Source of the DNA: a virus
DNA: 43,807 nucleotides
Virus record (IMG/VR): IMGVR_UViG_3300020429_000529
Location: 454,762-498,568 of that record
Direction: 5' to 3' (one strand)
In this document: piece by piece, positions 2,836-27,546 of the stretch
Position numbering within the stretch: position 1 is the first letter of the stretch
Layout: the number at the start of each line of letters is the position of its first letter
The notes under the pieces: generated by a model
Database searches by the model: none
What the model saw: only the letters and a program-made list of their open reading frames with translations
What the model was told of the DNA's origin: nothing
Program-made: the position numbers and the translations under genes

Positions 2836-3504
2836 ATGGCTTCGAAGAAGAACAGCGGCAACGGCGGCTCCGGCGGTTCCACCCCGACCCTCGACAGCGC
2901 GACGACCGGCGCGATCGAGCAGCTTACCTCGGTCGCTCAGGGCGCTGTCGCGACTGCCCAGACTCACTCCGAGGCGCTCGCCACGGCGCAGACGGGCCTC
3001 GATGAGGCGATCGCTCAGGCGACGGCTGCCAACGAGCGGATCGTCGCTCTCGGCGGCACGCCCATCGAGATCCCCTCGTCCAACGGAACGGCGACGGCGA
3101 CCGCTCCGAGGCGTCGGCGCAACAGCGGCGGTCGGTCGAGTTCGAGCGCGCCTCGTACCAGCGGTCGGCGTCGTCCTCGCAACCCCTACGACTTCCCGAC
3201 CAGCATTCTGATCGCGATGGCTGGCAGTCGCGTCGGCACCGAGTTCGACAACGCTGCGATCCAGGCGGCGCTCCGCATCAACCAGGACGGCGGCTTCCGT
3301 ACCAACGCCAACGAGACCTCGCTGCGGACGCAGATCACGCAGAACATCGGGCGCGTCATGGACGGCAACCACGAGGCTCCGAAGGGTTCGTTCGTCCAGG
3401 TCCGTCGCGGCGTCTACGCCATCACCTCCGAGGGCAAGGCGTTCGTCAAGGGCTGCTCCCTCGCCGATGCGGTCGAGGCCGACGAGAGCGAGTCGTCCGA
3501 CTGA
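2836..3504 (+). CDS. DNA-binding protein with a Gly/Ser/Arg-rich N-terminus and a C-terminal Mrr_N-like winged helix
   Basis: Shine-Dalgarno site AAGGA. The C-terminus reads ...RTQITQNIGRVMDG...VQVRRGVYAITSEGKAFV, which matches the Mrr N-terminal winged-helix pattern. An RRRR/RRRPR tract is present. A terminator follows. Confidence 0.7.
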   Translation: MASKKNSGNGGSGGSTPTLDSATTGAIEQLTSVAQGAVATAQTHSEALATAQTGLDEAIAQATAANERIVALGGTPIEIPSSNGTATATAPRRRRNSGGRSSSSAPRTSGRRRPRNPYDFPTSILIAMAGSRVGTEFDNAAIQAALRINQDGGFRTNANETSLRTQITQNIGRVMDGNHEAPKGSFVQVRRGVYAITSEGKAFVKGCSLADAVEADESESSD

Positions 3505-3529
3505 CGACAGCCTCGGGCACGACTTCAAG

Positions 3530-3561
3530 GCCGTCGCTCCTTCGGGGGCGGCGGCTTTTTT
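3530..3561 (+). terminator. rho-independent terminator
   Basis: GCCGTCGCTCC, TTCG loop, GGGGCGGCGGC, then TTTTTT. Confidence 0.75.
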
Positions 3562-3587
3562 GCGCGAAATCCGATCGTTGGGGTTAT

Positions 3588-3599
3588 CAAAGATAGGTG
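3588..3599 (+). promoter_or_regulatory. CAAAGATAGGTG 12-mer, copy 1
   Basis: Exact 12-mer, downstream of the 3530-3561 terminator. Confidence 0.6.
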
Positions 3600-3845
3600 G
3601 GCGGCGTATACATAGTGGAGGGGAAGGATTCCTCTAACTGGGGCCTCGGCGCTATGGAGTTGGCGTCGGGGCCTTTTTCTTTCCGCATCTGCCCATGAGG
3701 GCTGTCTCGCTGACATCTATGGCAGACGGCTTCTCCTTGCCGTTGGGAAACTCGGTCGGCGGCGTCTCGTCGGGCGTCGTCGGCTTTACTCGCCACTGAC
3801 GGGCGGAACAATCGGGCATTTGCGTCATTCCCTGAAAGGACTCGG

Positions 3846-5405
3846 ATGCCTCAGATCACCCTCCCCAAATCGTTCTTCACCAAAGAGCGCGACAATCTCT
3901 ACTCTGACTGGCGGACCGCGTTCTGGCGCGAGGACTTCCAGAACAGCATCGACGCGGGCGCAACCGAGATCCGTATCTCCTTCGAGCAGATGGGAGATGA
4001 TCTCGCTGTCGAGTTCATCGACAATGGCTGCGGCATGACCCGAGATGTCATCGAGAATGTCTTTTTCGCGCTCGGAGAGACCACCAAGACCGGCAGCACG
4101 ACAGGCGGCTTCGGACGCGCCCGCATTCTGACATGCTTCGCTATGGGCTCTTACGAGTTCTGGACTGGCAACCTGCATGTTACGGGCGATGGCGCAAACT
4201 ACAACATCAACGACAACCAGCCTCATGTCAGCGGATGCCGCTTCCGAGTCGTCATCAACAACGAGACGGCAGAGAAGATGCGGACGGCGCTGAAGAAGGT
4301 TCTGCTGATGTCGCAGATGTCCTGCCATGTCTTCGTCGATGGCGAGCGTTGGACGAACTGGCTCCACAAGCGCCGGCTCGTCAAGACTGCGAGCTACGGC
4401 AGCATCCATGTCAACAAGAACGGACAGTTCACGAACCAGGTTATCGTCCGAGTCAATGGTCTTTGGATGTATTCCATCTACTGCGAGGCCAAGGCGCAGG
4501 TGATCGTCGAGATCGATCCGACCAAGAGCCGAGAGGTTTTGACCGTCAACCGAGACGGCATGCACTACAACTACAGCAACGACCTGCAATCATTCATCAA
4601 CGAGTTGGCTGTCGATACTCGATCGGCGCTGCGGGCACGCAGGCGCAAGACTCGGCTCATCGAAGGAACCGGCGTTCATACGACATCCCGTCCCATCGAC
4701 ATCCCGCAGAACGATTGGGAGGAAACCGCTCCTTCTGACACGATCTCTGTCGGCAACAATGTCGCTGTCGCTGCTGGCGGTACGATCGCCGCTGCGATCC
4801 AGGTCAACAGAGCGCAGTCGGTTCATGCCAACGAGGTTGAGTCTGAGATCATCAAGGGAGAGCAGATCGAGACTGGTCTGCCTGCGATCTACATCAACGA
4901 CGAGACCGATCCGATGGATCTGTCCCATGCGGCTGTTCGCAAGATCATCGACAACTTCGACCCGACCCGTTGGGTGCATGCGGTCAAGAAGGTTCGCGGG
5001 CACGAGCAGCCCTACCGCAAGGGAGCGAACTATCTCAAGCTGCTGATCGCATGGGAGGCATGTTGTCTTGAGGCGATCAAGGCGCTGCTGAACACGGACT
5101 ACGCTCCGCAGCAGTTGCGCTGGTTGGTCGGTTGGACGTTCTCTTTCGAGGACGGCGCATGTCATGTTGGTCTGTCGGAGGGTCATGCTCTTTGCTTGAA
5201 CCCTGTCAAGAAGGACGGCAAGCTGCGCTACAAGACCAGAGATCGCAGCGATCAGATTCGTCTGATGGCTCTTGCCAAGCATGAGGTTGCGCATGTCATC
5301 GTTGGTCCCCATAATGAGGACTATGCGGCGGTATTGACAGCAATCGACAGTCACTTCGATGCGCAGTCATGTTTCAAGGCGATTCGTCAAGCGCTTGCTG
5401 CATAA
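3846..5405 (+). CDS. GHKL-family (HATPase_c) ATPase-domain protein with a C-terminal HExxH motif
   Basis: Bergerat-fold motifs are present: EDFQNSIDAG, DNGCGM and GGFGRARIL. The C-terminus contains KHEVAHVIVGPH. A Shine-Dalgarno site AAAGGA precedes the start. Confidence 0.7.
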   Translation: MPQITLPKSFFTKERDNLYSDWRTAFWREDFQNSIDAGATEIRISFEQMGDDLAVEFIDNGCGMTRDVIENVFFALGETTKTGSTTGGFGRARILTCFAMGSYEFWTGNLHVTGDGANYNINDNQPHVSGCRFRVVINNETAEKMRTALKKVLLMSQMSCHVFVDGERWTNWLHKRRLVKTASYGSIHVNKNGQFTNQVIVRVNGLWMYSIYCEAKAQVIVEIDPTKSREVLTVNRDGMHYNYSNDLQSFINELAVDTRSALRARRRKTRLIEGTGVHTTSRPIDIPQNDWEETAPSDTISVGNNVAVAAGGTIAAAIQVNRAQSVHANEVESEIIKGEQIETGLPAIYINDETDPMDLSHAAVRKIIDNFDPTRWVHAVKKVRGHEQPYRKGANYLKLLIAWEACCLEAIKALLNTDYAPQQLRWLVGWTFSFEDGACHVGLSEGHALCLNPVKKDGKLRYKTRDRSDQIRLMALAKHEVAHVIVGPHNEDYAAVLTAIDSHFDAQSCFKAIRQALAA

Positions 5406-8160: not shown

Positions 8161-8338
8161 TGAGTCCCATGAGCGTATTCCGCTTACATCTCGGCCTGTT
8201 GCTTGCGTAAGGGGAAGACCCCCGCTAACGCATCTCTTGCGCCTTGAGATGACCTCAACCCACAACTGAAGAAACCGACTATCCCAAGAGGTGACAGCAG
8301 ACCGCGGTATGCTGATCGCTTGGCGGGGTAGCTCTTTT

Positions 8339-8420
8339 GGCCCCGTGGCGGAATTGGCAGACGCGCCAGATTTAGGATCTGGTTCCCTCGGGAGTGCAGG
8401 TTCGAAGCCTGTCGGGGCTA
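8339..8420 (+). tRNA. tRNA-Leu (anticodon TAG)
   Basis: Manual cloverleaf. The anticodon loop is TTTAGGA, the variable arm is long and the T-loop is TTCGAAG. The 1:72 pair is G:U. Confidence 0.75.
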
Positions 8421-8426
8421 TTTGAG

Positions 8427-8501
8427 GCCTGGGTGCGTCAATGTGGCAGAACGGCCAGCATGAGATGCTGGTGGATGGAGGTTCGAATCCTCTCTCAGGC
8501 A
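8427..8501 (+). tRNA. class-I tRNA (short variable loop) with anticodon GAG, identity uncertain
   Basis: The loop is ATGAGAT and the variable loop is 5 nt. The T-loop TTCGAAT is canonical. A73. Same scaffold as 9173-9247. Confidence 0.5.
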
Positions 8502-8514
8502 TTTGGAGACAGTC

Positions 8515-8670
8515 ATGACGGACGAAGCGAAGCAGGATCATGGAACATTCGTAGATCCCGCAGAAGCTCTGAAGCGGGCGTATGACGCAGCGCCAGAGAA
8601 GATGGCAGAGGTTCTCGGGGGCGAGCCTCATCCTCTGCCTGAGAAGAAGGACGAAGAAGACGACGACTGA
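8515..8670 (+). CDS. small acidic hypothetical protein (51 aa)
   Basis: A GGAGA Shine-Dalgarno site lies 7 nt upstream. GC3 is high. Not in the ORF track because it is under 60 aa. Confidence 0.4.
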   Translation: MTDEAKQDHGTFVDPAEALKRAYDAAPEKMAEVLGGEPHPLPEKKDEEDDD

Positions 8671-8677
8671 ACAACTT

Positions 8678-8757
8678 GGCCCTGTGGCGGAATTGGCAGA
8701 CGCGCCGGATTCAAAACCCGGTTCTTAGGAGTGCAGGTTCGACCCCTGTCAGGGCTA
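8678..8757 (+). tRNA. tRNA-Leu (anticodon CAA)
   Basis: The loop is TTCAAAA and the variable arm is long. Paralog of 8339-8420. Confidence 0.7.
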
Positions 8758-8868
8758 TTGGAAGGAAGAGACATGCTTTTACCTGGAAGACTTCAGCTTG
8801 CTCTTTTGCTCTCTGAGAAGATCAAGGCATGGCAAGAGCGAAGGAGGCTGAAGAAGGAGGCCTCATGA

Positions 8869-9072
8869 ATGATGGACTTCAGCAACCCGCCGATGCATCG
8901 CATCGAATCGTGGGTGAACAAGTCGTTCAGAATACCTGATGCAGAGTTCACAGTAACAGATGTACGAAAGAGTCCGAAGGGATCGATCGTCGTACATGGC
9001 AGAGCAGTAGGAATACACGGATCAGTCAACAGAGTTCATTCAGCTTACTGGCTGGCGAAATGGGCTCCATAA
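8869..9072 (+). CDS. hypothetical protein (67 aa)
   Basis: An AAGGAGG Shine-Dalgarno site is upstream. The gene lies between tRNA genes. Confidence 0.45.
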   Translation: MMDFSNPPMHRIESWVNKSFRIPDAEFTVTDVRKSPKGSIVVHGRAVGIHGSVNRVHSAYWLAKWAP

Positions 9073-9077
9073 ATCAA

Positions 9078-9161
9078 GCGGACATGGCGGAATTGGCAGA
9101 CGCGCAACCTTGAGGTGGTTGTTCCCTAACGGGAGTGGAGGTTCGAGCCCTCTTGTCCGCA
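9078..9161 (+). tRNA. tRNA-Leu (anticodon GAG)
   Basis: The loop is TTGAGGT with G37. The variable arm is long. The acceptor stem GCGGACA/TGTCCGC is perfect. Confidence 0.75.
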
Positions 9162-9172
9162 TTTTACCCGAT

Positions 9173-9247
9173 GCCTGGGTGCGTCAACTTGGCAGAACGG
9201 CCATGCTCAGAACATGGTGGATGGAGGTTCGAATCCTCTCTCAGGCA
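9173..9247 (+). tRNA. class-I tRNA with anticodon CAG, identity uncertain
   Basis: The loop is CTCAGAA and the variable loop is 5 nt (TGGAT). The T-arm is canonical. A73. Confidence 0.5.
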
Positions 9248-9258
9248 CTTCCCCATTC

Positions 9259-9342
9259 GGGGGCGTAGCAGAATGGCATATGCGGCGGACTTAAAATCCG
9301 CAGTCCTCTGGACAGTTGCGGGTTCGACTCCCGTCGCCCCTA
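9259..9342 (+). tRNA. tRNA-Leu (anticodon TAA)
   Basis: The loop is CTTAAAA, the variable arm is long and the D stem is 3 bp. Confidence 0.7.
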
Positions 9343-10924: not shown

Positions 10925-11078
10925 TTGCAGATTTTTGCTGCTTTCGAGTGGAATAGTGAAGGGATTTGGGTAGTATGGTCGAAGAGGAAAGTCGCAATGC
11001 AGCAGATAATCGTCCATGTCGGAATCGTGATTACCACCTGAGGGAGGTTTTACGTTATCGTCTGGACGACAAGCGTAG

Positions 11079-11107
11079 AGGCCTCCCCGAGCAGGGAGGT
11101 CTTTTTT
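11079..11107 (+). terminator. rho-independent terminator
   Basis: GGCCTCCCCGAGCAGGGAGGTC followed by TTTTTT. Confidence 0.7.
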
Positions 11108-11114
11108 CGTGTAT

Positions 11115-11189
11115 GGGCGGGTAGCTCAATTGGCCAGAGCGCCTGGTTTACACCCAGGAGGTTTGAGGGTTCGAGTCCCTCCTCGCCTA
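11115..11189 (+). tRNA. tRNA-Val (anticodon TAC)
   Basis: The loop is TTTACAC and the T-loop is TTCGAGT. The variable loop appears to be 6 nt. Confidence 0.65.
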
Positions 11190-11205
11190 CTTCAGACATT
11201 TGATG

Positions 11206-11287
11206 GTGGCCTTGGCAGATAGGCAATGCACCTGGTTGTGGTCCAGGGTCCGTAAGGACAATGCGGGTTCGAATCCCGTAGGTCACC
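11206..11287 (+). tRNA. class-II tRNA-like gene (long variable arm) with anticodon GTG, identity uncertain
   Basis: The anticodon arm is CCTGG, TTGTGGT, CCAGG. The variable arm is 15 nt, the D stem is 3 bp, the T-loop is TTCGAAT and the discriminator is C. Confidence 0.45.
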
Positions 11288-11299
11288 CTTTAGATAGAC

Positions 11300-11371
11300 A
11301 GGCTTGTAGCTCAGCGGCAGAGCGCTCCCCTGATAAGGGAGAGGACGGGATCTCGGAATTCCCCAAGCCTA
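11300..11371 (+). tRNA. tRNA-Ile (anticodon GAT)-like with a degenerate T-loop
   Basis: The acceptor stem and anticodon arm are nearly identical to bacterial tRNA-Ile(GAU). The T-loop is CTCGGAA and lacks T54 and A58. Confidence 0.45.
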
Positions 11372-11372
11372 T

Positions 11373-11457
11373 TGGGTCGTGCGCCGAATTGGTTAGGCAC
11401 CCGACTGATAATCGGGGAGCGTTAAGCTCTATGCAGGTTCGAGTCCTGTCGGCCCTA
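11373..11457 (+). tRNA. class-II tRNA-like gene with anticodon GAT, identity uncertain
   Basis: The anticodon arm is CCCGA, CTGATAA, TCGGG. The 16-nt variable arm forms a hairpin. Position 1:72 is a mismatch. Confidence 0.4.
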
Positions 11458-11476
11458 TTGACGATACACTGAATGA

Positions 11477-11550
11477 GGCCCCTTAGCTCAGTTGGCCAGA
11501 GCGCTTGCATGACACGCAAGAGGCCGTTGGTTCGAGTCCAACAGGGGTCA
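11477..11550 (+). tRNA. tRNA-Val (anticodon GAC)
   Basis: Clean class-I cloverleaf. The loop is ATGACAC. Confidence 0.75.
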
Positions 11551-11555
11551 TTCGG

Positions 11556-11630
11556 GGAGCAGGTACAAGTTAGTCCACATTCCGCGGATGCGGAGCGACG
11601 TTGGCTCAAGATACCTGCTCCCTCTTTTTC
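11556..11630 (+). terminator. long imperfect hairpin (~70 nt) followed by TCTTTTTC
   Basis: GGAGCAGGTA pairs with TACCTGCTCC, with a nested CCGCGGATGCGG hairpin. A T-tract follows. Confidence 0.45.
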
Positions 11631-11632
11631 AT

Positions 11633-11707
11633 GGGGGCGTAGCTTAGCTGGCCCAAAGCATACGACTCATAATCGTGAGATCGTCGGTTCGAATCCGACC
11701 GCCCCTA
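11633..11707 (+). tRNA. tRNA-Met (anticodon CAT), elongator or Ile2-like
   Basis: The loop is CTCATAA. There are no initiator features such as a C1:A72 mismatch or GGG/CCC pairs. Confidence 0.7.
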
Positions 11708-12064
11708 CTTTTCAGGCACGCATAAACCCAAGCGCAACAACGACTTGCTCCTCGGAGCCGAAAAAAGTCGCGCAGAAAGACCACTGACGCTTGAAGGTGC
11801 AATGAAGATTGGGTATACTTCTCGAACCGCCGCAGCGAGCAGCAGCGAGCTACGACGGACTTTGGCAACCGAATACTGAACGATGCCCCGACGCTCATCT
11901 GAGACGATCTTCGGATCAACTGAGCCGAGCTTAGGGGCACCTTGGGGCTGAAAGCCGAACCGACAAGAATGGTCGATTTAGTACGAGCAGAGTCGTGAAA
12001 CACTGATCTGCGAAGGACGGACATACCGATCATCATTCAGTAAGAAAGTCGTAGGCCCCGCCTT

Positions 12065-12231
12065 GGGACGGTAGCTCAGCGAAGATGACCTTCGGGTCTA
12101 AGGAGCGCCGCTCGCCAACGATCTCTTTGGAGACCATGCTTCTCCCTTTGCCTTGGTCGGCTGGGGAAACAAGAAGTACCCGAGAGATCGTTGGAGAGCG
12201 GAGGTCGGAGGTTCAAATCCTCCCCGTCCCA
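12065..12231 (+). ncRNA. giant tRNA-shaped RNA 1 (~167 nt)
   Basis: Perfect 7-bp acceptor stem GGGACGG/CCGTCCC. TA plus D-stem GCTC/GAGC, with a UUCG hairpin inserted in the D-loop. About 17-bp anticodon-position helix, CCGCTC-CCAACGATCTC with GAGATCGTTGG-GAGCGG, enclosing 58 nt. Variable loop AGGTC. Canonical T-arm GGAGG, TTCAAAT, CCTCC. Confidence 0.55.
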
Positions 12232-12237
12232 CTTCTT

Positions 12238-12403
12238 GCGGCGATAGCTCAGCGAAGAAGCGATCACCTTCGGGAGATCGTCAAGGAGCGCTGTTCCGCT
12301 TGAAGAACCGTTCGTACCTGTCCCGCCTGGCACTGACCTCGCGGCCTGGACAACGGCTCTTCAAATGGAACAGAGGTCGGGAGTTCAAATCTCTCTCGCC
12401 GCT
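12238..12403 (+). ncRNA. giant tRNA-shaped RNA 2 (~166 nt)
   Basis: Same architecture as giant 1. Acceptor stem GCGGCGA/TCGCCGC. UUCG hairpin in the D-loop. About 20-bp helix CTGTTCCGCTTGAAGAACCG with CGGCTCTTCAAATGGAACAG, enclosing 43 nt that include GCACTGACC. Variable loop AGGTC. T-loop TTCAAAT. Confidence 0.55.
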
Positions 12404-12405
12404 TT

Positions 12406-13470
12406 AGATTGGCCCAACAGCAATGGGAAAGCCAATCGACATACGCAGAGATCCGAACCTGCTTGCAGAAAGGATCAAAGCTTCAAGATTCAGGTACGAA
12501 TAGATGGAAACATCTTCAAATACCTGAGTACGCCTCAGTTCGCTATGTCTCGTACATGACGGCTGAGCGAGCAAGAAACCGAAAGGGAAACTTGCTTGAG
12601 GCACACCAACTTGAGAGAGTTGGAAGCATGTGGCCGCTAACGGGCACTGACCGGCGACGGTCTGAGCAACGAGCGACAGTCATCCGAGCGAGGAAACTCG
12701 TTGGGATGGCTTTCACCAAGGCTTGTCAGTTCAACCTTCATGGTGACATAGAAGAACTGACCTCTGACTGGTCCCGGTCAGCCAAAAGGGACAGGCATGT
12801 TGGCATACCTGAGTATGTCCTACCGCCTCGTTCCAGACGCGTGGGTCGTCTGTTCGCCCTCTGCACGTTCTTCGAACCTGCATGGTGACAACGGCTTGAA
12901 AATATGGCTCATGGTCGAGTCAAACACGGTCCCTTGGTTCAGGCTTAACGGGTAGGCCTCAAACGGCCAACAGTCTGCGTCAGCGTTAAAAGCGTAACGC
13001 AGGCTTTCCCAATACCTTGCCAAGCTCTCAAAGAGGGAGGGCAGCAAGGCTCTGGCTGCTCACGGCTAAACCAAGAGTGAGAGGCAGTTCATGCCTTCAT
13101 AAGACTCGGCGGCCTTCCTTCGATGCCTGGTAAACATCGATGAGCGGAGGATGCCTGTGTCAATGTAGAAATGGGCTACAGAGGTCCGGGTGAGAAACCC
13201 GGCCCTTCTGTTTTCCGCAGTCGAATGCGCAATACCTGATCTCTGCCGCCCTTGGAAAAGGCACGATCAACGCAGAAGGATGGGCGCTTCGACGGTCGAG
13301 ATCAGTTCGGCGAATGTTCTGCAGAACTCGTCGGGCACGGAGATGTGACGGCTTCAATCCGTCATGGCGAGTTTCGATTCTCGTCCTCGGTTTTCCTCAG
13401 CGGCGGGCGTCGATGGCTACGGCGCAGCAGAGACTCAAGCCCCTTGTCTTCGGACGAGGGGCTTTTTTCG
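12406..13470 (+). ncRNA. about 1 kb region with poor coding potential, ending in a strong terminator. Candidate long structured RNA or regulatory region.
   Basis: The only long ORF, 12409-12888, lacks the GC3 bias seen in every accepted gene. Hairpins are present, for example GATTGGC...GCCAATC at 12406-12437. Terminator at 13438-13468. Confidence 0.3.
13438..13468 (+). terminator. rho-independent terminator
   Basis: GCCCCTTGTC, TTCG loop, GACGAGGGGC, then TTTTTTCG. Confidence 0.8.
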
Positions 13471-13508
13471 TGCGCTGCCACTGACCTCTACCTGCTGAAA
13501 TCTTGGTC

Positions 13509-13796
13509 ATGGCAACCAAACAAGCAACGCTGCATGCAGCGAAGAGAATCGTGATCGACTGCGAACGGAACGATGATGTTGACATCCGTTGCGGCGGTCC
13601 TGCTGTCCTTGGCTTCGATTTCCTCGTCCCCTTCGAGGAGAAGACGCCTGACCTGCGCAAGTGGCTTCAGGCAACGCTCAGCAAGCACGATCGCCCTGTC
13701 ATGAGCATCTCGATCAGCCGCTCAAAGGAATGGGTCGTCAAGGGTCGTCTCTGGGGCAAGCGCCGTATGGAGGCTTGCATCAAGAGCGGCTATTGA
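13509..13796 (+). CDS. hypothetical protein (95 aa)
   Basis: CCACTGAC, then 23 nt, then ATGGCAACC. Confidence 0.55.
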   Translation: MATKQATLHAAKRIVIDCERNDDVDIRCGGPAVLGFDFLVPFEEKTPDLRKWLQATLSKHDRPVMSISISRSKEWVVKGRLWGKRRMEACIKSGY

Positions 13797-13898
13797 CAGG
13801 AGCCCTCAGAGCGGCTATTCTCGGGTAGCCACTGACGGACCAGCCGTCAGATCGTTAGAGTCATCTCGCACCGCCAAACCCAAACAAAGGAGAACCCA

Positions 13899-14534
13899 AT
13901 GGCGAGCAAATCCAAGTCCAAGTCGTCCGCCGCTGCCACGCTGACCGCCCCCAAGGGCTCGGTCCACAATGTCGTCGAGTTCAGCGACGACTCGAAGACC
14001 GATGTGTTCGATCTCGTCGCGTCGTACAACCCCAAGAAGGACGGCTCCTGGCAGGAGTTCATCAAGTCCGATCGGGTCCGCGAGGCGCTGGGCCGCAAGC
14101 TGCTCATCAACGAGACGGGTCTGTCGGTCCCGCTCGACGGCAAGGTTGCCGATGCCGCTGCCGCTCTGTCGGGCGTCGTTACGGTCTGGGGCGGTATCTC
14201 CCAGAACTGGGAGGCGACCAGCGCCTACGGCAACCAGCACTACACCGCTCAGGGGCCGATGCACTTCAACGGCGTCGATCGCCTCTCGACCGATGCGCTC
14301 ATGCTCAACGCCGCCATGTTCATCGAGGTCATCGCCCAGCGCGCCGGGCTCAAGGCCCTCTCGCCCGATGATCCGAACTTCGCTCAGGCGCAGGCGGCTC
14401 TCTCGGCTCTCCGCCAGTTCGCTCAGAACCGCCCCGGCGAGATCAAGGACGCCAAGAAGGCGCAGATGTACGCTGCGGTCGGCAAGGGCGATGAGGCCGA
14501 GGTCGTCAGCAAGGCCGATACCGCCGCTGCCTGA
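13899..14534 (+). CDS. Ala-rich hypothetical protein (211 aa), probably highly expressed
   Basis: Strong AAAGGAGA Shine-Dalgarno site 7 nt upstream. Very strong GC3 bias. A terminator hairpin follows. Confidence 0.75.
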   Translation: MASKSKSKSSAAATLTAPKGSVHNVVEFSDDSKTDVFDLVASYNPKKDGSWQEFIKSDRVREALGRKLLINETGLSVPLDGKVADAAAALSGVVTVWGGISQNWEATSAYGNQHYTAQGPMHFNGVDRLSTDALMLNAAMFIEVIAQRAGLKALSPDDPNFAQAQAALSALRQFAQNRPGEIKDAKKAQMYAAVGKGDEAEVVSKADTAAA

Positions 14535-14679
14535 TCCATCGGGCACCTGAGAACCCCCAAGGCCGCTCGTCCGCTCTGCGGGCGGGCGGTCGTTTTCGTG
14601 ACTCTCTAAATCTACAATGTGACAACCGGACGATGTATCATTAGATGCAGTTGGGTCTGAGCTACAGGAGAGTCAAGCC

Positions 14680-14994: not shown

Positions 14995-15720
14995 ATGTCA
15001 TTCATCGAAGTCCAAGACGGCGTTGCACTGATCGATGCGAACCAATGGGTCCGCATCAAAGCCATAGGCGAAACAGAGAGCCCCAACATCAGAGGCGGCA
15101 CTGTTATCTTCTATGGCGCTGAGCAGAAGAAGGTCATCGACGAGCCATCCCGACTGAAGGATCGAACCGAGTTCGCAGATCCTCCTCTGGATCCTGCTGC
15201 ATGGGACGACTTCATCAACGGTCGCATTACTGAGTCCGTCTGGCGAGATCGTCAGCGTGCTTTTGGCGACAGCAACGGCTTCGGCTACATCCTTGACGGC
15301 ATCGGCGGCAACAAGGTCTTCGAGACTGACCGAGATCGCTACGACCGCCTGTACGCTCAGTATGGTCCCGACGACATGCCTCGGCACACCTATTGGACGA
15401 CAGAACGTTCTCATTACGAGCCGTCGCATTTTGATTGGCAAGGAGTTCCAACAAACAATGGCGGTAACTGGCATACTCTACCTGGCAATATCATCGAGAT
15501 GGATCTGAAGCCTGAAGTTAACTACGAGGTACAAGTCATCCGTCCTGATGTTCCTGCTAATGAGACGTATCTGATTCTCGGAGGGGCCGTCGAGGAGCCG
15601 CAGGCACCTTCAAGGAATCCGGAGTTCGGCGCTGCTCGGCTCCATGATCCGATCTTCAGTACGCCAGCGGGCAAGTTCGGCAGGCCGCTCGCCACTGACG
15701 ATTCGCAGGACGATTCGTAG
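14995..15720 (+). CDS. hypothetical protein (241 aa)
   Basis: Start at ATGTCATTC, immediately after CAAAGATAGGTGGAGAACT. GGTGGAG serves as the Shine-Dalgarno site. Confidence 0.6.
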   Translation: MSFIEVQDGVALIDANQWVRIKAIGETESPNIRGGTVIFYGAEQKKVIDEPSRLKDRTEFADPPLDPAAWDDFINGRITESVWRDRQRAFGDSNGFGYILDGIGGNKVFETDRDRYDRLYAQYGPDDMPRHTYWTTERSHYEPSHFDWQGVPTNNGGNWHTLPGNIIEMDLKPEVNYEVQVIRPDVPANETYLILGGAVEEPQAPSRNPEFGAARLHDPIFSTPAGKFGRPLATDDSQDDS

Positions 15721-27494: not shown

Positions 27495-27546
27495 CGCGAA
27501 TTTGTACCTGTCTCGGTCACTGACGGATTTCGGGTCGAGCGAGGCC

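Follow-up and report, generated by a model that had tools for sequence, protein, structure and literature searches.

Does a stretch of about 1 kb that lies downstream of a transfer RNA (tRNA) array in a viral genome, and in which no gene is readily recognised, hold a protein, a functional RNA, a DNA-level element or nothing at all? This question is raised by positions 12406-13470 of a 43,807-nucleotide (nt) piece of the IMG/VR record IMGVR_UViG_3300020429_000529 (hereafter the window, meaning the whole piece that was analysed). A previous sequence-only reading had noted there a single long open reading frame (ORF), several hairpins and a terminator, and had proposed a long structured RNA, an origin or packaging region, or a degraded remnant; all the features it described are present, with coordinates correct to within one base. 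In our opinion, 12404-13470 probably corresponds to the main body of a non-coding RNA that stands alone and is encoded by a marine phage-like genome of ~500 kb. The 5' portion of this stretch is a conserved module, preceded by two tRNA-like elements (A and B) and followed by a lineage-specific 3' extension.

All the genes of the window lie on the + strand, and most of them are small and without a family match. The window is a piece of a ~500 kb contig that was recurrently assembled from marine metagenomes (ENA ERZ17089788, 498,610 bp; Tara and Logan assemblies), and the source genome is most likely that of a very large phage, because it carries tRNA arrays. Over positions 11000-13600, the public copies are all 100% identical to the window, with the sole exception of the sister strain L005 (a 502 kb contig, 95.6%); exact-protein look-ups likewise gave two sequence variants of the locus in total, i.e., the window type (100%) and L005 (95.6%). 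No relative was retrieved from the GenBank phages (blastn, megablast and tblastn), from an IMG/VR protein scan or from a protein-profile scan of the JGI metagenome contigs. Moreover, probing IMG/VR with patterns for the tRNA-like D loop and for the module did not yield any match, and the four matches of a promoter-plus-leader pattern were all due to chance; a leader-motif scan of the JGI metagenome contigs returned 119 loci, only one of which was real (a 1 kb fragment of the same phage), and the single match of the module pattern in the GTDB genomes was a chance one, located inside an archaeal coding sequence. The marker used for the homolog hunt was the neighbouring 211-amino acid (aa) protein (13899-14534), which identified four relatives at the first search and, through a profile built on those, six more. 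The contigs obtained in this way were L135, L136, L137, L139, L141 and L143; since the marker protein of L135 and L141, which carry the homologous RNA described below, is only 36-44% identical to that of the window, these two represent distant lineages.

Coding capacity and the conserved module

In agreement with the sequence-only reading, no ORF of at least 120 aa other than 12409-12888 (+ strand; 159 aa, start TTG) occurs in 12406-13470, and this one lacks the bias towards G+C at the third codon position (GC3) of the accepted genes. Its GC content at codon positions 1, 2 and 3 is flat (0.56/0.49/0.53), compared with a GC3 of 0.61-0.88 and a GC2 of 0.35-0.50 for the 26 accepted genes of the window. 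The statement that this bias is pronounced in every gene was slightly overstated, because in some of them it is modest (e.g., 14995-15720, GC3 0.61). The frame is open for 159 codons in the window strain, and the leader motif CACTGAC occurs inside the region at 12645; nevertheless, the start of the ORF does not show the usual arrangement of this genome (CACTGAC, 22-23 nt, ATG), no Pfam family matches it, public gene callers do not call it, and in L005 it is broken by +1 and +2 indels (a frameshifted patch) and by two in-frame stops. Furthermore, the homologs described below have stops in every frame on both strands, with no frame open across all of them, and their mismatches to the window are equally distributed over the codon phases (33/36/33, 51/41/43 and 41/45/45 in the homolog comparisons), with no 3-nt periodicity. 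The comparative alignment, in other words, reveals conservation without codon periodicity, and the substitution pattern of the homologs, in which the sequence-only reading had placed the possible disproof of a non-coding interpretation, is not protein-like. Region 12406-13470 does not encode a protein, and the chance that the 12409-12888 ORF, or a smaller one, is a real protein gene can be regarded as practically nil. An alternative genetic code was also considered and discarded: readthrough of any one stop codon opens no gene-sized frame across the region.

The region folds better than shuffled sequence. When 120-nt segments were slid along the + strand, the mean fold z-score was -1.85 in 12400-13480 versus -0.50 in the flanking coding DNA (Mann-Whitney p = 0.0016), and the + strand, where the tRNAs, the promoter and the terminator all lie, folds better than the - strand (Wilcoxon p = 0.012).

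The 5' third corresponds to a structured RNA module of ~310 nt with nine helices (12404-12711, + strand), defined by its homologs and by their covariation. According to nhmmer, 12404-12735 is homologous to L135 4061-4376 (E = 4.5e-36) and to two tandem copies in L141, at 3337-3650 (E = 2e-13) and 3655-3921 (E = 8e-19). The alignment (A6) embeds five sequences from three lineages (the window, L005, L135 and the two L141 copies), and its consensus comprises 14 helices with 90 pairs in total. In 49 of these 90 pairs, both partners have changed without loss of pairing, compared with 21.7 ± 3.2 in column shuffles (none of 500 reached 49) and with 4-12 compensatory pairs in slid controls, in which the 3' partner was moved by 1-3 columns; 91.7% of the cells are paired, versus 32-40% in the same slid controls. 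Even in the set of three sequences (window, L005 and L135), 18 out of 100 pairs covary, against 6.3 in shuffles. The secondary structure of the module on the + strand is evolutionarily conserved.

The module opens with hairpin P1 (12407-12437, four of six pairs covarying), which is the GATTGGC-N17-GCCAATC hairpin pointed out by the sequence-only reading. A closing helix, P2 (12440-12446 with 12626-12632), then encloses a junction of five hairpins, namely P3 (12450-12476), P4 (12488-12529), P5 (12534-12567, with a hypervariable tip), P6 (12568-12598) and, last inside P2, P7 (12607-12622); P8 (12635-12675) and P9 (12678-12711) complete the module. GNRA tetraloops are found on P4a, P6a, P8a and P9. 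The string UUUAGA(G) marks the 5' boundary in all the copies, and also the 3' boundary in L135 and L141; in the window, the module starts one base past the discriminator of tRNA-like element B.

The region matches no Rfam family. The module has no match in Rfam 15 in any of the three lineages, and searches of the window and of the homologs at gathering and at permissive thresholds retrieved nothing beyond tRNAs; for self-cleaving ribozymes, group I/II introns, RNase P RNA and riboswitches, only chance-level matches were obtained with E up to 10. The long structured RNA proposed at the outset therefore has a strong case in 12404-12711, because of the covariation in distant homologs, whereas the more specific suggestions of a ribozyme, a riboregulator or a tRNA-processing trailer were not borne out; no ribozyme or riboswitch family matches. 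RNase P RNA, which strings resembling GAGGAAA and GAAACCCGG had brought to attention, was rejected (no Rfam match, no P4-type pairing by inspection). Even with filters off, covariance model R1 recovered exactly the four known loci (one in the window, one in L135 and the two L141 copies) and no further one in the window or in the other relatives. On comparative grounds, the 5' third defines an RNA family that had not been catalogued before, and in this genome it is fused to tRNA mimics of an unusual kind.

The same data bear on the proposal of a DNA-level element, i.e., an origin of replication or a pac/cos site for packaging. Such an element could be devoid of genes and rich in hairpins, as the region is, and the cumulative GC skew flattens near 11.5-13.5 kb; however, the skew has no sharp inflection or sign change (the plateau extends to ~22 kb), and iterons, AT-rich stretches and repeat families of more than three copies were not found, so that neither the skew nor the repeats revealed an origin or pac signature. 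Moreover, a predicted promoter and a predicted terminator flank the region, one strand gives a stronger folding signal than the other, which fits an RNA and not origin or packaging DNA, and the covariation of the module includes G-U intermediates, which matter only in RNA. We consider a DNA-level element highly improbable.

The probable transcription unit, its tRNA-like elements and its 3' extension

The region does lie downstream of the tRNA array, as had been stated, but not directly after it: between tRNA-Met (11633-11708) and 12404 there are 356 nt of non-coding DNA plus the two tRNA-like elements. The RNA unit begins 83 nt past tRNA-Met. A consensus scan located a predicted sigma-70-like promoter at 11791-11819 (+ strand; TTGAAG, 17-nt spacer, TATACT), identical in L005, and the same architecture (TTGACG, 17 nt, TAAGCT) is found upstream of the homologous RNA in L135 (3655-3683) and L141 (3098-3126). 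An RNA with its own conserved promoter, as predicted here, would not be the mere trailer of a tRNA operon. The leader (11826-12065, + strand, with a putative start near 11826) embeds a conserved hairpin domain (11883-11939, + strand) with a closing helix AUGCCCC/GGGGCA, an internal CUGAG/CUGAG motif and a UUCG-capped tip, in which an A-U pair is replaced by a compensatory G-C in L005. This hairpin matches positions 583-638 of another relative, L006 (local alignment 21.5, shuffle mean 11.7, sd 1.8; nhmmer E = 3e-4), and L135 (nhmmer E = 3e-3). The homology of the whole 1 kb region with L006 non-coding DNA was also considered; it is not significant, and the leader hairpin alone matches.

At the opposite end, a GC-rich hairpin followed by a U-run constitutes a predicted intrinsic terminator at 13437-13470 (+ strand; 12-bp stem at 13437-13464, UUCG loop, T6 to 13470), identical in L005. 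The terminator is strong, and within the 8-15 kb scanned it is exceeded in number of pairs only by 14561-14591, whose T-run is poorer. The homologous RNA of L135 also ends in a hairpin plus T-run (~4648-4685). The tail TTTTTTCGTG is common to the terminators at 11077-11111 and 13437-13470 (repeat family D13; 11098-11111 and 13459-13472), and a terminator with the same tail was observed in the distant relative L137, at about 4744-4755.

Element A (12066-12232, + strand) folds into a cloverleaf with a long arm (fold z = -4.96), and the same design is predicted for element B (12238-12403, + strand). Both share the main parts of a tRNA cloverleaf (a 7-bp acceptor stem, a D arm and a T arm with a UUCRANY loop, here UUCAAAU), and in both of them a UUCG hairpin interrupts the D loop (between AGCGAAGA and UAAGGAGC). 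A long closed arm takes the place of the anticodon stem-loop: the 5-bp anticodon stem with its 7-nt loop is absent from both, and continuous helices of ~18 bp lead into closed arms of 80-100 nt. In element A, the arm is of ~100 nt, the variable region is AGGUC, the T arm is GGAGG-UUCAAAU-CCUCC, CCA is not encoded and an anticodon loop is absent; the element is 100% identical in L005, and the same design occurs at L135 3745-3922. The acceptor end of element B resembles that of tRNA-Gly (G1-C72, C2-G71, G3-C70, U73). Its homolog, L135 3923-4059 (nhmmer E = 2.5e-11), reaches 50 bits on the Rfam tRNA model, and compensatory changes affect 11 of the 40 pairs, distributed over the acceptor stem, the long arm and the T stem, with the apex of the arm invariant between lineages. 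In the window, the two elements are called neither by ARAGORN nor by Rfam tRNA.

A wider family of tRNA-shaped RNAs was observed at L135 3745-4059, L139 3154-3390, L006 148-262 and 645-717, and L137 3376-3460 and 4375-4540. Its members lack a normal anticodon loop: some have a long, closed arm (~100 nt at most), others a stem of 6 bp capped by a 6-nt loop, and the D-loop hairpin insertion between AGCGAAGA and UAAGGAGC is frequent among them; the L139 element has the same insertion together with a 6-nt "anticodon" loop, and the L006 element is a minimal version. tRNA finders miss or mislabel the family ("tRNA-Pyl", "tRNA-???", a 94-nt "tRNA-Ala").

Strain comparison and fold z-scores depict the ~720 nt that follow the module (12712-13436, + strand) as a lineage-specific hairpin array. 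No nhmmer or covariance-model match was obtained for this extension in any relative, and in the absence of a detectable homolog it is judged from the sister strain alone. With respect to L005, three + strand stretches are hypervariable: 12540-12592, in the module (P5 tip and start of P6; 11 substitutions and two indel columns in 53 nt, 21%), and the hairpins 13016-13052 (27%) and 13099-13166 (32%, with the loop GCCUGGUAA kept), both still stable in spite of the changes. The borders of the patches coincide with hairpin borders, and among random mutants with as many changes, placed at the same positions, the fraction at least as stable as the L005 hairpins is 0.000 (1000 mutants), 0.003 and 0.042, respectively. 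The P5 tip has a different sequence in the window, L005 and L135, and a hairpin in each of them. A further hairpin (13178-13212, + strand) contains the second one indicated by the sequence-only reading (TCCGGGTGAGAAACCCGG, 13185-13202), whose pair 13186/13200 is C-G in the window and U-A in L005, a clean compensatory exchange; in addition, the + strand fold z-score reaches -4.65 at 12940 and -3.05 at 13120. In L135 and L141, too, the module is followed by further RNA, which covaries between those two (21 of 55 pairs) and is unrelated to the extension of the window. The extension is probably a structured RNA as well, with far less certainty than the module; the case is a moderate one, made by hairpin-preserving strain variation and strand-specific folding.

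Outside the patches the two strains differ by 1-1.7%, and the local synonymous rate is 0.016-0.02 in the adjacent genes (0.073 on average); the three patches diverge by 21-32% at ~2% local synonymous divergence, i.e., faster than neutral. A diversity-generating retroelement as the cause of the patches was rejected, since the substitutions in the alignment to L005 are not adenine-specific.

The extension is also where a different explanation finds its arguments, namely that the region, or at least 12712-13436, is functionless and made up of decayed genes or decayed tRNA copies, which would be transcribed passively as a trailer extending from the last functional RNA to the terminator. The extension has no homolog in any relative, it diverges outside the patches at the local synonymous rate, many pairs are broken in the single-sequence structure test, and in L006 the terminator directly follows the tRNA-like element; possible relics are hairpins resembling a T loop (13349-13385) and, at 12645, a string similar to a degenerate gene start (CACTGAC, 10 nt, CTGAGCAAC). 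Nevertheless, this explanation cannot cover the whole region, because the 5' third covaries across distant lineages. The coincidence of the hypervariable patches with whole hairpins whose stability is kept, the + strand-specific folding that reaches into the extension and the covarying structure after the module in the relatives stand against it too, and the tRNA covariance model has no match in 12406-13470, even with E up to 10. The degraded remnant envisaged by the sequence-only reading is thus refuted for the 5' third and can concern only the lineage-specific 3' two-thirds; on the whole, we judge the functionless scenario unlikely. The idea that the extension consists of decayed tandem copies of the module, suggested by internal repeats and by the tandem arrangement in L141, was discarded, as R1 with filters off finds no second copy.

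The proposed RNA and its known counterparts

For the stand-alone non-coding RNA, we can depict the following scenario. Transcription would proceed from the sigma-70-like promoter and start near 11826, as the conserved signals suggest, yielding a transcript of ~11826-13470 that includes the leader, the two tRNA-shaped elements, the module and the hairpin array of ~720 nt, and that would stop at 13437-13470. The tRNA-shaped elements might be excised by host enzymes (RNase P at the 5' ends, RNase Z or RNase E at the 3' ends); this excision would create, at ~12404, the 5' end of an RNA of ~1.07 kb, the 3' end of which would be protected by the terminator hairpin. By analogy with the GOLLD and ROOL RNAs discussed below, we propose that, in the course of infection, the RNA might work in trans by serving as a folded scaffold or as a decoy, that the GNRA loops and the hypervariable hairpin tips might mediate RNA-RNA or RNA-protein contacts, and that the linked tRNA mimics might engage tRNA-binding host factors.

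Some points weigh against such a scenario. The module is found in three lineages only and is absent from the flanks examined in L136, L137, L139 and L006, so that it must be dispensable for some relatives; L141 carries it without tRNA-like elements, and the link between the module and the tRNA mimics is therefore not obligatory. The extension has no homolog outside two ~95%-identical strains, and purifying selection on it is not demonstrated, because its non-patch divergence equals the synonymous rate. In the structure predicted from the window only, 16 strain differences break pairs, while three double and nine single ones keep them (coding controls of similar divergence have zero double changes). 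Finally, the promoter, the processing sites and the RNA ends are all inferred from sequence.

The closest counterparts are found among large phage RNAs. GOLLD RNAs occur near phage tRNA islands, the env-38 example follows a tRNA-Met, and tRNAs are sometimes located in the linker between the 5' and 3' domains (PMC12286853). The locus analysed here has the same phage or prophage location beside tRNA genes, and the likeness extends to a large, multi-helix non-coding RNA and, in the case of env-38, to a marine source. The two differ in that the 3' part of GOLLD is conserved universally and its 5' part varies, whereas here the 310 nt at the 5' end, after the tRNA-like elements, are conserved and the 3' part is variable; moreover, the GOLLD linker can hold tRNAs, in place of which anticodon-less tRNA mimics are found here. 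Homo-oligomeric nanocages are a further character of GOLLD. ROOL (RF03087) is likewise a phage-encoded ornate RNA near tRNA islands, without a known protein partner (PMC12286853). It shares that location with the window RNA and differs from it in length and helix layout, besides the fact that its model is unmatched. The GOLLD and ROOL models have no match in window 11500-13700, L135 3400-4700 or L141 3050-4381, even with permissive filters and E up to 10, and the GOLLD model in Rfam (RF01998) does cover the GC-rich phiCbK-like Caulobacter phages. It is thus very unlikely, in our view, that the locus is a very divergent GOLLD or ROOL member missed by the Rfam models, notwithstanding the phage context, the tRNA island, the position downstream of tRNA-Met, the length of more than 800 nt and the occurrence of tRNA-shaped elements between a 5' and a 3' domain, as in GOLLD. 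We read the window RNA as resembling GOLLD and ROOL in context and general kind and not in membership, that is, as a new RNA family of that kind.

Regarding the tRNA-like elements, the topology of transfer-messenger RNA (tmRNA) is the same as theirs, with acceptor stem, D arm and T arm kept and a long helix replacing the anticodon stem-loop. Element A has only a weak tmRNA-like match on Rfam (E = 0.012); in both elements, the 3:70 pair is G-C and not G3:U70, there is no tag reading frame, and ARAGORN finds no tmRNA. Another RNA to be compared is YrlA, a bacterial Y RNA with a tRNA-like domain whose long helix carries the RNA ends, relative to which the topology of A and B is permuted. Both scores are far below threshold (tmRNA, 13.1 versus a gathering value of 47 bits; YrlA, 21.4 versus 69 bits). 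No Ro60/Rsr gene was seen in the window. Furthermore, cases in which a tRNA-like signal directs processing at the end of a long RNA are provided by the mascRNA of MALAT1, by the mitochondrial tRNA punctuation model and by the stable RNAs species 1 and 2 of the T4 tRNA cluster. In a similar way, an abutting tRNA-shaped element would let RNase P and RNase Z set the ends of the RNA; the resemblance is one of analogy only, and the L141 module does without tRNA-like elements.

A bolder hypothesis, which we advance tentatively and to which we give a rather low probability, is that the whole promoter-to-terminator unit is a new class of phage RNA machine, in which tRNA mimics and module cooperate. 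If so, it could be a decoy or sponge that sequesters translation factors or those defence nucleases of the host that target tRNAs or, alternatively, a self-assembling RNA-only particle carrying tRNA-shaped cargo, in line with a proposal made for GOLLD; in that case the hypervariable tips would determine specificity, and diversifying selection would act on them.

Genomic neighbourhood and significance of the locus

Eleven tRNAs lie within the 4 kb upstream of the RNA unit; in 13 kb of L135, ARAGORN calls no tRNA. One of those of the window (11300-11371; 52.5 bits on Rfam, not called by ARAGORN) has the loop CUGAUAA (GAU, Ile) and a T arm that looks atypical. The tRNA-His gene is of 83 nt in the window (11206-11288) versus 74 nt in L005 (7311-7384). 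The tRNA genes appear to have been exchanged between the strains, since the block 11115-11708 differs from that of L005 by 30 substitutions and 14 gap columns. Between tRNA-Val(GAC) and tRNA-Met, 11551-11632 forms a long hairpin (GGGAGCAGGUA ... UACCUGCUCCC, then UCUUUUUC) that, by its appearance, may serve for termination or for processing within the array. Further upstream, 8338-9342 harbors six tRNA-Leu genes with five anticodons (TAG, GAG twice, CAA, CAG and TAA), and the same kind of tRNA-Leu array is found in L136 after a metallophosphatase gene. L136 (3209-3330) and L137 (3464-3600) share the start of another non-coding RNA downstream of tRNA-Met (directly after it in L136), with the sequence GGTTTCCCATCTTCC ... 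AAAAAGATGGGTGG, then CACCGAAAGGTGA; it is unrelated to the module of the window and may represent a second RNA family at the same genomic position.

The heptamer CACTGAC occurs 72 times in the window, always on the + strand (e.g., 13479-13485, 13830-13836 and 27518-27524), compared with an expectation of 5.7 copies and a maximum of 11 in shuffled sequence. In 34 cases the distance to the next downstream ATG is exactly 22-23 nt, and in 28 cases the heptamer precedes ATGAGC (Met-Ser starts); most of the linked starts show no Shine-Dalgarno sequence by eye. The heptamer looks like a per-gene leader signal, i.e., an unusual ribosome-binding or RNA-processing site. Three copies fall in the gene-free RNA block (11782, 12331 and 12645), where L135 and L141 have other bases. 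A second motif, AAAGATAGGTG, has 12 exact copies in the window, all on the + strand (3589, 9346, 14977, 27484, 28670, 31117, 32294, 34446, 36590, 38658, 41241 and 41942) and none between 9357 and 14976; in the copies inspected it lies ~20-25 nt upstream of CACTGAC, and it is probably a phage-specific promoter element.

Near the locus, GC3 peaks in the gene of the 211-aa protein (13899-14534, + strand; 0.87), which also has a promoter of its own (TTGACA, 17 nt, TATTCT). The protein adjoins the RNA or a tRNA-like locus in every relative, the relatives having been found through this very protein. It has no Pfam or PHROGs family, and its AlphaFold model (predicted local distance difference test, pLDDT, 67; predicted template modelling score, pTM, 0.63) has no fold match in the PDB or BFVD; the protein was rejected as a functional clue, there being neither a family nor a fold match.

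Large structured RNAs without an assigned function are rare, and the few that are known (GOLLD, ROOL, OLE and raiA) were recently found to form unexpected RNA-only assemblies. The locus described here adds a candidate to these, and it comes from marine phage-like genomes of ~500 kb, a lineage that has hardly been sampled; its covariation signal is unusually clean for so few sequences, and its RNA is physically fused to tRNA mimics. It offers a defined construct, either 11826-13470 or the module 12404-12711 alone, and a covariance model for metagenome searches. If the tRNA mimics and the module act together, this would bear on the question of why phage tRNA islands often carry large RNAs.

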